Origin: a virus
Lineage: Duplodnaviria; Heunggongvirae; Uroviricota; Caudoviricetes
DNA: 17,287 nucleotides
Virus record (IMG/VR): IMGVR_UViG_2713896795_000005
Coordinates: 1 to 17,287 of that record
Reading direction: 5' to 3' (one strand)
The position numbers and the translations under genes are program-made. The notes under the pieces are model-generated. The model was not told where the DNA came from, searched no databases, and was given only the letters and a program-made list of their open reading frames with translations. Positions 32-4,477 of the stretch are shown one piece after another. Every line of letters begins with the position of its first letter. The stretch's first letter is position 1.

Positions 32-3000
32 GTGATATTGGTTGTCTGGAGATTCAGGGGGCCAGTCTATAGTGGTTTTAAACTCTATTATAATGATGAT
101 ATTGGGAACCAGATTCCCGATAACTCCGGCAACGAACAGATTAATGAATTGGCAGAGATGCCATCATTTGGTATTAAAAGTGAAGTACAGACTATTGAAA
201 CTTATAGTAGTGGTTATTCAGAGAAACTACTAGCAGAGCAAGACATCGGTAATATTGAAGTAGTAGTAAACTATCTACCAGATGATCCCGGTCATATGTT
301 CTTAGATGAAGCGACCGAAAGTCAGGATGAATTCCAATTAACTATGATTTATAACGTCGAAAATGATGTAATCAGTTATTCGATGGTCAATGGTAAGATT
401 CAATCAGCTAGCCTATCAGGTGACAAAGACACAGTAGTAACCAAAACTTATTCATTCGTACCTACTGACGTTATTATGCGTGATGGAACCGCTGTACTCA
501 GTACCCCACTAGTAGTAGGCTCCTATGGTGTCGGCTCTAACGGCGTAGACGTAGCTCAGTACCAACCAGACCTACCAGATGGTAACAGCTTTATTAAGAT
601 TCCTTCATCACAAGTCGGCAACCCTGCCGGATCTGATATGATGGGTATTGGCCTAATTGATATGGGTACATTTTCTAGTCTTGCAATGACTAAATCCGGC
701 TCATTGGCAATCTATGCAAAGAACCAGAATACAGCATGGCAACGTATCCTAACTAGTGGTCTAGGTGATTCTAAGTACGTAGCATTAACTGGTGACCAAA
801 CCGTAGCAGGTAATAAAACCTTCTCAGGTGATACAAAGGTTAATAGTCTTATTTCTACAAATGGTATTAGTGGTTTAAGTCTAACTGTAACTAATAAGAT
901 TAAAGGTAGTGATATTGAAGTACAATCCGCTATTTTAGGTGCAGCCGCAGCCGATACCCTAACACTAGGTCAGGCACTATCTGTAAGCAATGGCGGTACT
1001 GGTGCTAAAACAGCCCCATTAGCACGTAAAAATTTAGGTATTAGCGAGACTGCAACCCTTGATGTTATTCCTATCGCTAATGGTGGTACAGGAGCTACTA
1101 CACTTGCACAAGCTCAAACCAACTTAGGTATTGTTACCAGTACAGCCCAAGATGGCAAATACTTGATTAAGTCTAGTAACCTATCTGATTTGACTAACCC
1201 AGCGACAGCACGTACTAATCTAGGTCTAGGAACAGCAGCAGTACAGAATACTGGTACAAGTGGTGCTAACGTACCTTTGATGAATGGTAATAATACATGG
1301 TCTGGTACTAATAACTTTACTTATGCTACATTTAAATCCACAGTAGCTAACCCGCTATTAATTGAAAGTGTAACACCAACAATTACATTTTCTCAAACTG
1401 ATGTAGTTAATAAAGCATTATTAGTATTAGATGGTAGTACATTCCGTGCACACGAAAATACTACGGCTGGTGATAATATCTTTAATTATAGCTTTACTGA
1501 TAAAACTATTACCTTTAATAAAGTAGCTCTATCTAATGCTCTACCTGTTAATAGTGGCGGTACTGGCGGTACATCGCCAGCAGCGGCACGTAATAGCTTA
1601 GGTACGTTCTATGAAAATAAAGTACCACTAAGTACCGAAGACTTAAACACTCTAAATGGTACTCAAGCTGGTATCTACATGCAGAATTTAAGCTCTAATG
1701 CAACTTCAGCCCGTAACTACCCGTCTACTATTGCAGGTACTCTACGTGTATATCAAACGGCTGCAATTAATGCTAATGGATGTGTTCAGATTTATACCGC
1801 ATATAACACCGCTAGAACTTGGAAACGTGTCTTTAGTAGTGCTACGTGGTCAGAATGGAAAGAAGACAATACAGCAGGTAATATCACTGGAATTATTCCG
1901 ATTGCAAATGGCGGTACTGGTAGTAATACAGCAGCAGGTGCACGTACTAATCTTGATGTTCCGGCAAATAGTGAAGCATTCTTGAAGAAAGATAACCTAG
2001 CAGGTATTGAAAACAACGCCGCAGCATGGCTAAACGTTCGTCCAGTTGGTGCTACTCCCCTTGCGAGTGATCCAGTAAACGACTATGACGCAGCGACTAA
2101 ACGTTGGGTAGAAAACCTTGTATCTACTGGGACTACTGGCCCGACTATGAACGGTGTAATGAACTATGGCGTAGGATCTTTTAGACTACAAGATAGTCGT
2201 ACTTTTACTCAGCCATATGATGTTTTATCTGATGGACAGATTCTAAAACGTGCTGATTATCCAGATCTATGGGCTTATGCACAAATGGTATCACCAATTC
2301 CTGATGCTACTTGGGTAAGTGACTATCGTCAACGTGGTAAGTATTCTACTGGTGACGGCTCAACTACTTTCCGTGTACCAGATCGTAACGGTGTACAATC
2401 TGCTTCCGTAGCTGGTCTATTTGCTCGTGGTGATGGTGGCGGTATCTTCGGTACTGGTACAGTTGCACAAGCAGGTCTACCTAATATTATTGGCTCAATA
2501 GGTTTTCACGGATCACAAGCTAATGGTAGTGGTAATACTGCGTTATCTTCTGTTAGTGGGGCATTTACTTCAAATAGTCCACAGAGTGGCTATTCAATGC
2601 AGGAAAGAAACGTAGCAGCACAATCATTGGGATCTGCATCAATAGATGCATCACGCTCGCATCCAGTATACGGACGTAACACAACTGAAGTTGTACCTAA
2701 CCACTTTGTTGGTGTATGGGTAATTCGTGCTACTGGTAGTTTTCAGGCAGCAAATACATCATGGTCTGTTATTAATGGGGATACTACATTACCTCCTGTT
2801 AGTACCGTAGTATCTGGCGGTAGTGTTATTTCAGAATATAAAGTAGGTACTACTTCCCGAAATAAAGCCACATTTGATACATTTGAAATTGTCGGCGGTG
2901 GGGCGAAAGATAAAGGTGCAAGAATATCTAATACAGCAGGATATAATTTTAGATTTAATGACGATGGATCTTTAGGACTTCCTCCAAATGGTAATATTAC

Positions 3001-3676
3001 ATCCGAAAACAACGTTTTAGTATTAGATGCACCAACTACATATTGTGGTAGTTTATATGCGGATCGTGGTGGTACTGTAACAGTACGTGCAGATGAACGT
3101 AACGAAATCGGTATTAAAAACGAAAGAGGGCCAACCTCACCGGAAACCTATGTCAATAGTGTCTATGGTAACTGGTACGACGGCGTATGGGTCTTAGGTG
3201 GTGTCCGTGGTGGATCTACTAACCTAGACCGTGCACAATTAAACGTACAATCTGGTACTGGTGCTTATGCTTCCTATCTCTTCGGTACTGATGGTGTAGC
3301 ACGTTGTCAACAGTGGTTAAACACTTCCGACCTACGTGTAAAAGAGAATGTAGTACGTATTAGTAAACCATTAGAAAAAATGCGTAAGATTCAAGGTGTA
3401 TCCTGGACTCTTAAAACTAATGGATCTACTGGTCATGGCTTTATTGCTCAGGAAGTTGAAAAAGTATTCCCAGCAGCAGTAGTAAAAAGTCATGATATGG
3501 AACTACAGGACGGTACTAAAGTAAAAGACGTTAAAGCCGTAGATACTTCAGGTGTAGCGGCAGCATTGCACCATGAAGCAATCCTAGCATTAATGGATAA
3601 AGTTGAAGACCAACAGAAAGAAATTGATGAACTACGTGCCGTGGTAACACAATTACTAAACGCACAGAATAAATAA
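32..3676 (+). CDS. Large tail fibre protein: N-terminal domain paralogous to the downstream small tail protein, central tail-fibre repeats, C-terminal intramolecular chaperone (peptidase S74-like) domain
   Basis: 1214-codon ORF. Contains five copies of a GGTG-x-T/S-x(3-4)-AR-x-NLG motif typical of phage tail-fibre repeats. The C-terminus (SDLRVKENV...[23 protein letters not shown]...) resembles the auto-cleaving chaperone domain of endosialidase and T5 L-shaped fibre proteins. Start is uncertain: the ORF opens at GTG32 directly after an in-frame TAA (29-31), with no clear SD; TTG38 is an alternative. Confidence 0.8.
980..1960 (+). repeat. Five in-frame copies of a ~20-aa tail-fibre repeat inside the fibre gene
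   Basis: Protein motifs [21 protein letters not shown] (~980-1042), [22 protein letters not shown] (~1067-1132), [17 protein letters not shown] (~1181-1230), [21 protein letters not shown] (~1541-1603), [22 protein letters not shown] (~1894-1960). Confidence 0.7.
3326..3673 (+). other. Intramolecular chaperone / autoproteolysis domain (peptidase S74-like) at the fibre C-terminus
   Basis: Motif S-D-L-R-V-K-E-N-V starts at 3326, followed by a ~110-aa domain ending in a predicted helical segment ([21 protein letters not shown]). Assignment is by recalled family signature, not a search. Confidence 0.6.
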
Positions 3677-3684
3677 ATAAACCA

Positions 3685-3714
3685 GTAAGGGAGTAATTCC
3701 ATACACTCCCTTAC
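3685..3714 (+). terminator. Stem-loop after the fibre gene (weak U-tract)
   Basis: GTAAGGGAGT (3685-3694), 10-nt loop, ACTCCCTTAC (3705-3714): perfect 10-bp inverted repeat 9 nt after the stop. The downstream tract is only moderately T-rich. Confidence 0.45.
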
Positions 3715-3748
3715 TATCAAATTAAATCTTTATAAGGAAATTAAAATT

Positions 3749-3919
3749 ATGGCTATGGATATTATGTCAGGTGCAAACCTAAAAGTAGAAGTAGGTACAA
3801 GTGCTGGTAACACACTAGCGACCGACTTTAAAGAAGTTCCCGAAGTTGCTAGCTTTACTACTTCTGGCTTTGAATCAGTTGTTATAGACGTAAAAACTTT
3901 CAACTCTTCATATAACCGT
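3749..3919 (+). CDS. Exon 1 of intron-containing small tail protein (putative major tail/tube protein by position)
   Basis: ATG 3749 preceded by AAGGAA (3734-3739). Unspliced reading stops at TAA 3923-3925 after 58 codons. Homologous to the fibre N-terminal domain (EVASFTTSGFESVV vs [13 protein letters not shown]). Confidence 0.6.
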
Positions 3920-4189
3920 GGATAAAATAGCGGCCTATAGTAGCAATACTATTTGAATAACTCCTTTAATTGCTGGAAACTCTTATTATTAAGTTAAAGA
4001 CAATCAGCAGCGAAACCATATTATATGGAACGTTCAACGACTAGCCGAAAGGCGTAGGGATTAAGTAATCTCGAAATGGGGAGAATCCGAAATATCGGAT
4101 TGTGATATAGTCTAATCTGTATAGAAATATGCAGCAGTCATAAAGACCGATGACGATGTAGTATTAACGCCACTACATGAATAAAAATG
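3920..4189 (+). ncRNA. Group I self-splicing intron, ~270 nt, no homing endonuclease ORF
   Basis: Conserved core elements: P AATTGCTGGAAAC (3968-3980), Q AATCAGCAGCG (4002-4012), R GTTCAACGACTAG (4032-4044), S GATATAGTCTAA (4104-4115). P4 pairing TGCTG/CAGCA and P7 pairing GACTA/TAGTC. 5' exon ends in U3919 with a candidate guide GCGG (3930-3933) pairing CCGU. Intron ends ...AAAAATG (G4189), like the T4 td intron 3' end. In-frame stops sit at both intron ends (TAA 3923-3925, TGA 4178-4180). Confidence 0.75.
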
Positions 4190-4477
4190 AAATTGCTCGG
4201 CACAAAATCGATCCCTGATATTGAACTAAGTGTTAACTATCTTGCGGATAATACAGTACACCAACAATTAGAGACTCTCGCAGACGAGCAAAAACGCTGT
4301 CAGATTCGTCTAAGCTACTATACTGATGCAACCCACACTACTGGTTTTTATGTAGTTTATACTTGCTTCGTTAGTTCCACTACTATTGATGGCGACAAAG
4401 ATGAAGTAGTAACTAAAGCATTCAACCTAGCTGTAGACGGTGCAGCCGTTGAATCAGGTACACTACCTTCTATCTAA
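4190..4477 (+). CDS. Exon 2 of intron-containing small tail protein
   Basis: Same frame as exon 1; removing 3920-4189 (270 nt) joins ...SSYNR to KLLGTKSIPDIELSVNYL..., collinear and gap-free against the fibre N-domain (...[24 protein letters not shown]...). Shared GDKD-x-VVTK motif near the C-terminus. Stop TAA 4475-4477. Confidence 0.6.
   Translation, partial: KLLGTKSIPDIELSVNYLADNTVHQQLETLADEQKRCQIRLSYYTDATHTTGFYVVYTCFVSSTTIDGDKDEVVTKAFNLAVDGAAVESGTLPSI

Follow-up and report, generated by a model that had tools for sequence, protein, structure and literature searches.

How fibres are fastened to the tail is knowledge that both phage engineers and structural biologists need, and the known fibre anchors are collars around the tube, arms of Dit and baseplate proteins. 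In phage T5, duplication of the tube gene produced p140, which makes up a ring of its own, placed between Dit and the last tube ring, and it is on this ring that the p132 collar and the pb1 fibres are anchored (PMC10038345). In the Stf fibres of Ur-lambda, ring-forming N-terminal domains lead through linkers of about 10 residues into trimeric shafts (PMC12617516), and the neck passage structure (NPS) of lactococcal phages is anchored by a BppU-N-like beta-sandwich, for which an 18-mer collar is predicted (PMC6669499). Here we analyse a giant fibre gene whose N-terminal domain is a paralogue of the tail tube protein encoded next to it. The gene lies in a viral DNA stretch of 17,287 nucleotides (nt) (IMG/VR record IMGVR_UViG_2713896795_000005, positions 1 to 17,287; the window), which represents the tail module of a siphovirus-type prophage of the Escherichia coli type.

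A first-pass annotation of this DNA, made from the letters alone, had claimed that the ~150 N-terminal residues of the fibre align with the spliced product of the small split gene downstream. BLASTP recovered this relationship with 31% identity over 128 amino acids (aa; E=7e-17) between the fibre N-terminus and the spliced 152-aa protein, and the motifs named at the time (SG, VNYL and GDKD-VVTK) are present in the alignment. The alignment was also significant against the shuffled controls that the annotation had suggested: the Smith-Waterman score was 161 compared to 32 +/- 5.7 in 5000 shuffles (z ~23), none of which reached 161 (0/5000; Gumbel P ~1e-13). Furthermore, comparison of the fusion with the tube protein of its own locus detected the paralogy in 10/10 related loci tested (z 18-34), where it spans residue 1 to ~150 of both proteins.

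The small protein had been regarded as a tube protein because of its position. This position, on the upstream side of the G/GT frameshift chaperones and the tape measure gene, was borne out by PHROG matches of the chaperone and tape measure genes, and to it are now added profile and structural evidence. The spliced protein passes Pfam PF08813 (Phage_tail_3; 29.2 bits, cut-off 24.2) and matches PHROG 158 'major tail protein' (E=5.6e-20). A structure model was made for P0005, a 96% identical stand-in for the spliced protein that is encoded by three near-identical relatives of the window, the metagenome contigs L003, L004 and L024. The P0005 model matched the tubes of lambda gpV, YDC107, NF5 and monocin with a template modelling (TM) score of ~0.70 and a probability of 1.0, its mean predicted local distance difference test (pLDDT) value being only 61.7. 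By these profile matches and the model, the small protein is a siphophage tail tube protein with a predicted lambda gpV-N-like fold.

The fibre's N-terminal domain matches the same PHROG 158 family (E=2.7e-23). Searches of Pfam and NCBIfam gave no match for the window copy, and matches to tail tube proteins in these collections occurred in 2/8 family members and were sub-threshold; the domain passes none of the curated tail-tube hidden Markov models. Sequence searches of the PDB with the fusion and tube profiles returned no relatives, and hhalign of the fusion profile against the single sequence of gpV was an insensitive comparison. In the AlphaFold2 model of the fibre N-terminal region, the tube-like domain has pLDDT values mostly between 80 and 90 (whole-model mean 65.7). 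Its best Foldseek matches in the PDB were tail tube proteins and Hcp/contractile-injection-system tube relatives, among them 80alpha, NF5, lambda gpV, Sf11, YDC107, monocin, SPP1 and the gene transfer agent (GTA), with a probability of 1.0, E values down to 5e-7 and TM scores to the target of 0.6-0.7. Likewise, the best matches among viral models (BFVD) were major tail or tube proteins. As modelled, the fibre N-terminal domain thus has the tail-tube fold. The proposal of a tube-like module fused to a long fibre is strengthened by these top matches to solved tail tubes, and the structure predictions of both proteins place the shared domain among tail tubes and not in an unrelated fold.

The earlier description of the N-terminus was right about the tube-like module and missed a second conserved domain that follows (~aa 146-235). 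The connection between the two is predicted to be disordered, with pLDDT values below 50 at residues 145-174 and of 50-70 beyond. The second domain shows the conserved pattern GSYGVGSNG...PQY.P..P.GNSFIK.P...NP..D..GIGL.D...AMTKSG.LAIYAKN..TAW.RI.T; in Pfam none of the 8 members of alignment A6 passed a curated cut-off with this domain, and the window copy had no match at all. The conserved portion of the fibre is restricted to its first ~235 aa, beyond which the relatives diverge sharply. In tblastn searches of 50,697 phage records the N-terminal 230 aa found no match and residues 140-400 found generic fibre repeats only. The distal 582 aa matched annotated tail fibres of 308 phage records, which differ in genome size and name, with 47-54% identity over 94-97% of the query; ltfA of the T5-like phage DT571/2 is among these fibres. 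The distal half matches PHROG 6921 (E=8e-182) and is a receptor-binding module that many coliphages share. The fibre ends with a Peptidase_S74 domain in its C-terminal region, and S74 is found in relatives too; S74-type fibres we take to be trimeric and released by autoproteolysis. The 1103-aa fusion of a Klebsiella-type locus (L021, 2629-5940) ends in Phage_tail_C_2, not in Peptidase_S74; therefore the N-terminal anchor has been combined with different kinds of distal module. A lineage-specific N-terminal anchor joined to an exchangeable receptor-binding end is the usual logic of fibres.

The fusion gene lies upstream of the tube gene in 17/17 related loci examined, which come from E. coli, Shigella sonnei, Serratia, Pantoea, Klebsiella, Pseudocitrobacter, Buttiauxella, Phytobacter, Enterobacter, Scandinavium and Escherichia phage DCP80. 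The two genes are separated by 16-70 nt in 15/17 loci and by 437 nt in another one (L018), and in phage DCP80 a second fibre gene stands between them. The record of this phage (L007; PQ671644.1, 141 kb) is labelled Straboviridae/Tevenvirinae, and the module at 4112-12658 is of siphovirus type (699-aa tube-paralogue fusion, second 745-aa fibre, 164-aa tube, chaperones and tape measure); the record may be chimeric or misclassified. Word-indexed protein searches retrieved few fusion homologues (4, then 12), and a profile scan of genome contigs with alignment A6 retrieved 6 loci. When 1.84 billion cluster representatives were scanned with HMMER without filters, 165 matched, ~100 of them proteins of 600-1563 aa in which the profile matched at residues 1-237, the remaining ones being more distant fusions and short tube paralogues. 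As neither Pfam nor NCBIfam detects the N-terminal domain, 'tail fiber domain-containing protein' is the sole label of ~100 public protein clusters. More distant relatives of the tube protein occur in Vibrio phages without the fusion.

Among the relatives, the N-terminal domain has a mean pairwise identity of 43% and the second domain one of 54%; the tube protein reaches 62%, and the remainder of the fibre, which is mosaic, 25%. Divergence of both conserved fibre domains correlates with tube divergence (r=0.77 for the N-terminal and r=0.79 for the second domain), and paralogue scores are about equal within the same locus and across loci (172 vs 164). Since these scores barely differ and the N-terminal domain tracks the tube, the sequence data indicate a single old duplication, inherited along with the tube without recent gene conversion. 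That the N-terminal domain is less conserved than the tube, and that its assembly is a matter of inference, would suit an evolutionary relic acting as a folding, trimerisation or chaperone-docking module, with the fibre attached elsewhere, for example to the J-like tip protein. However, the domain is full length and keeps the tube core motifs, it invariably occupies the very start of the protein, as fibre anchors do, it adjoins its paralogue in 17/17 loci, and its divergence follows that of the tube, so that we consider a relic very improbable.

We propose that, after the ancient duplication of the tube gene, one paralogue turned into the N-terminal anchor of a lateral receptor-binding fibre. 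Its ~145-aa tube-fold domain would assemble as a ring that stacks in the tail tube like an ordinary tube ring, either next to Dit or at the head-proximal end. Six chains would leave this ring through the flexible linker and the conserved second domain and merge three by three into two trimeric fibres; the distal part of each would fold with the help of the S74 chaperone and bind a structure on the host surface. Most of the tube would be built from the short 152-aa paralogue once its intron has been spliced out. In functional terms the T5 trio p140, p132 and pb1 would then be fused into one polypeptide. We assign a probability of roughly 0.6 to this proposal, whose core is a ring of the tube paralogue in the tube stack that covalently bears lateral receptor-binding fibres, with the short paralogue as bulk tube. 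Two solved systems, T5 p140 and Ur-lambda Stf, make such a fusion ring plausible. By sequence comparison and modelling, the paralogy, the tube fold of both proteins, the tandem conservation, the opposition of a lineage-specific N-terminus to an exchangeable distal module, and the fibre-type C-terminus are solid; beyond these results we infer that the domain forms a ring, that it becomes part of the tail, where its ring sits and in what stoichiometry (6-to-2x3).

Several points weigh against this proposal. Oligomerisation of the N-terminal domain and its entry into the tail are proposals that go beyond the structure models, which are of monomers and of moderate confidence (mean pLDDT 65.7 and 61.7), and the Pfam tail-tube models miss the domain. 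The domain evolves faster than the tube (43% vs 62% mean identity) and may therefore have altered interfaces. It would be unusual for a virion to bear two fibres, and in its gene order, with the fibre gene behind the head-tail connector genes and upstream of the tube, the locus departs from the distal position in T5-like phages. Moreover, the copy in the window is disrupted by the insertion sequence (IS) IS2 and is uninformative on whether the fibre is essential.

The fusion might instead co-polymerise sparsely or at random with the short tube protein all along the tail and so make it hairy, as with SPP1 gp17.1*, the lambda gpV Ig domains or the lactococcal TpeX extensions. BFVD does hold viral proteins of 400-650 aa that start with a tube fold, and mixing of tube proteins that carry C-terminal decorations with undecorated copies is well documented (PMC6669499). 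Here, however, identity between the two tube domains is only 31% and they have stayed separate for as long as the family has existed, and a trimeric S74-type fibre needs three adjacent fusion subunits, which random mixing would seldom provide. For these two reasons, low identity and trimeric fibre, we judge random co-polymerisation improbable. In systems of the SPP1 gp17.1* and TpeX type, long and short forms arise from one gene by frameshifting and have an identical tube domain. A frameshift or read-through extension of the major tail protein of this kind was rejected for the window, which has two separate genes with 31% identity, an arrangement found in all relatives.

Where the ring would sit is a further question. 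The fusion gene stands between the FII-like head-closure gene and the tube gene, where lambda has Z and U, and this interval otherwise holds a single small unassigned protein of ~130 aa in all relatives (L003 5868-6263, L001 7132-7524 and equivalents). Since there is only this one protein, one canonical neck or terminator function is apparently missing, and the gene order together with this apparent shortage of a neck gene leaves room for a head-proximal or terminator role of the fusion. Its tube-like domain would then be the tail terminator or a head-proximal capping ring that ends tube polymerisation and displays neck fibres, in a position comparable to lactococcal neck passage structures or T4 whiskers. 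The shared ancestry of terminators and tube proteins (the gpU/gpV/Hcp relationship) counts in favour of such a cap. On the other hand, the ~130-aa protein could itself be the terminator, the N-terminal domain is 31% identical to the tube protein from end to end and so resembles a polymerising subunit and not a cap, and a fibre of ~1000 aa anchored at the neck may not reach past the tail tip; we consider such a terminator or cap unlikely. The ~130-aa protein is a candidate tail terminator or completion protein. It had no match in Pfam, PHROG, NCBIfam or PDB profiles, and hhalign against lambda gpU and gpZ gave no assignment. Its identity would decide between the rival models of ring position.

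A more specific form of the proposed fusion ring, in which one conduit ring of six fibre chains gives two trimeric fibres as a covalent, single-gene counterpart of T5 p140/p132/pb1 and might double as the missing terminator or tube initiator, we hold tentatively, at somewhat less than even odds. If it were true, a ring with terminator or tube-initiator function would tie the presence of the fibre to the control of tail assembly.

Table 1. Positions of the fibre, tube and neighbouring features in the window.
Feature	Position	Strand	Basis or remark
IS2 terminal end	1..69	.	window starts inside IS2
Fibre gene, 5'-truncated	70..3676	+	comparison with L003; first 23 nt gone (codons 1-7 and part of codon 8)
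Tube-like N-terminal domain	71..505	+	window residues 1-145 = intact residues 9-153; tube paralogue, fold predicted
Flexible linker (predicted) and conserved second domain	506..775	+	alignments A2 and A6; last family-wide conserved part
Distal receptor-binding half	1928..3673	+	tblastn, PHROG 6921; exchanged horizontally
Peptidase_S74 intramolecular chaperone	~3326..3481	+	PF13884, 50.5 bits, cut-off 22; residues 1086-1137 of 1201
Stem-loop, 13-bp	3683..3716	.	between fibre and tube genes
Tail tube gene, exon 1	3749..3919	+	57 codons; colinear with intronless 152-aa homologues
Group I self-splicing intron	3920..4189	+	270 nt, no ORF; Rfam RF00028
Tail tube gene, exon 2	4190..4477	+	95 codons and stop
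Intrinsic-terminator-like hairpin and T-run	4486..4512	+	directly 3' of tube gene
Tail assembly chaperone pair, G/GT type	4543..5240	+	PHROG 344 'tail assembly chaperone', E=5.8e-7
Tape measure protein, 732 aa	5227..7425	+	PHROG 13674, E=1.2e-66
Dit, T5 pb9-like	7492..8046	+	PHROG 1302, E=6.7e-20

The split of the small gene, already assumed in the first-pass annotation, into two exons agrees with colinear intronless homologues (Table 1). The intervening sequence scores 81.9 bits against Rfam RF00028 (gathering score 50, E=7.5e-20; 3910-4134). As read from the sequence, exon 1 ends in U3919, which forms the U.G pair in P1, and the last base of the intron is G4189. The predicted exon junction between NR and KLLGTK matches the intronless homologues colinearly and gives the spliced product of 152 aa. 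A score above the gathering value, the 5' U.G pair, the terminal G and an open reading frame (ORF) restored on joining are all features of a group I intron, for which splicing is predicted. The intron is polymorphic, being present in the window and in L024-L026 and not in L001-L005. A 60-nt stretch of its core (3999-4058) is 88-89% identical to DNA of the large Bacillus phages phiNIT1, SPG24, BSP10 and Mawwa, which suggests that the intron has been exchanged across distant hosts. Of the two predicted hairpins flanking the tube gene, the stem-loop on the fibre side is flagged as terminator-like on the minus strand only, with no clean T-run following it on the plus strand, and the hairpin behind the tube gene may set a high ratio of tube to chaperone expression.

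The 5' end of the fibre gene is lost in this genome. Bases 1-69 show 98-100% identity to copies of IS2 from records of coliphages and Shigella phages, one of which carries the annotation 'insertion sequence:IS2', and homology to the intact fibre gene of L003 starts exactly at base 70, corresponding to coding-sequence nucleotide 24. Near-identity to an IS2 terminus and an abrupt junction with the target gene identify the element as IS2. The 1214-aa fibre of the first-pass annotation does exist as an ORF (32..3676), but its start is IS2 sequence: from the GTG at 32 the first 13 residues are encoded by IS2 and not by the phage, whose gene is cut at codon 8, with its own start codon and upstream sequence lost too. 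In intact relatives the N-terminus reads MSNNIFTG followed by SGFK. Because IS2 has removed the gene start, the fibre is probably not made normally in this genome. The insertion is particular to it, since L024 combines the intron with an intact fibre of 1216 aa. IS2 may also exert polar effects on the downstream tail genes, and its presence suggests Escherichia or Shigella as the host. In S. sonnei the prophage, represented by several hundred contigs (L009/L010, e.g. HE616528.1), carries IS elements (HTH_Tnp_1/rve) in the J-like tip gene at 13021-14417; therefore IS decay is recurrent in this prophage family.

Across the window the genes are arranged as giant fibre, split small gene, two chaperone ORFs, tape measure, Dit, hub protein, DUF6950, J-like central fibre (1070 aa), lysis genes and GIY-YIG nuclease. 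The same order is found in ~77% identical prophages at the yegD locus of two E. coli chromosomes, where the PGAP labels are 'phage tail tube protein' for the small gene and 'tail fiber domain-containing protein' for the large one. The window fibre shares 1080/1201 and 1103/1201 residues with the fibres of L003 and L004, and the intact fibres of L003, L004 and L024 have 1216-1219 aa. In the chaperone pair, the frames place the slippery sequence A_AAA_AAA (4836-4842) directly before the stop codon 4843-4845, and the -1 frame after the slippery site continues KK-IIEDHELRTYLDL into ORF 4911..5240. The pair thus has the sequence features of a canonical -1 programmed frameshift, and in a Serratia relative (L011, 7517-8215) it is annotated as a fused 232-aa product. 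Dit scored 23.9 bits against Pfam PF21430, below the cut-off of 27. It would form the tail's next ring with a tube fold and is among the candidates for the position beside the fusion ring. Further downstream, the lysozyme gene (13829-14281, minus strand) and late genes flank a free-standing, SegE-like GIY-YIG homing-endonuclease gene (PF19835, 64 bits; 14320-14757), which is kept in relatives.

Rings of tube fold that carry appendages are a known theme, exemplified by Dit, p140 and the decorated major tail proteins. A search of the literature for fibres anchored by a tube paralogue, neck fibres and phage DCP80 found no description, so that a fibre anchored by a tube paralogue is not described in the literature searched. 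If the proposal holds, a fibre anchored by its own tube subunit would be a new and very economical principle of attachment. It would pose a clear 6-to-2x3 symmetry problem for study, and the clean module boundary at ~residue 235 would offer a site for swapping receptor-binding parts in a widespread group of Enterobacterales prophages.

Compared with the known systems, the locus resembles that of the lactococcal NPS, where the gene of a large accessory fibre likewise lies close to the one for the major tail protein. Unlike the anchor proposed here, that of the NPS does not have the tube fold, and the NPS was rejected as the same kind of protein since its anchor is BppU-like. With the decorated major tail proteins (lambda gpV with its Ig-like domain, SPP1 gp17.1* and lactococcal MTP-TpeX; PMC6669499) the fusion has in common a tube domain followed by an outward, host-binding C-terminal extension. 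Those extensions are monomeric and stem from the same gene product as the tube through read-through or frameshifting, whereas the window has a separate, long-diverged paralogous gene with a presumably trimeric fibre of more than 1000 aa. The belt domain of Dit and the 'evolved' Dits likewise bear receptor-binding appendages on an N-terminal ring-forming domain similar to a major tail protein; the window, however, encodes a separate Dit, and in sequence the fusion is closely paralogous to the tube protein, not to Dit.

The likeness to T5 extends to three features: a duplicate of the tube gene that would serve as a ring anchoring lateral fibres, a pb9-like Dit, and a distal fibre half that is 47-51% identical to LtfA-type fibres of T5-like phages and has the S74 chaperone at its end. 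Here, unlike in T5, the tube paralogue and the fibre form one polypeptide without a separate collar protein. With one tube domain per chain a hexamer is expected, whereas T5 p140 is a pseudo-hexameric trimer, and the fusion is 31% identical to its tube protein compared to 9% for p140 and pb6. The p140 ring lies between the last tube ring and Dit, whereas the ring proposed here would lie either next to Dit or at the head-proximal end. In Ur-lambda, finally, the Stf collar domain, which is small and of beta-sheet/helix type, encircles the gpV/gpM junction from the outside; 12 copies of it carry 4 fibres. The anchor in the window, by contrast, is itself predicted to have the tube fold and should sit within the tube stack, for which six copies and two fibres are expected.

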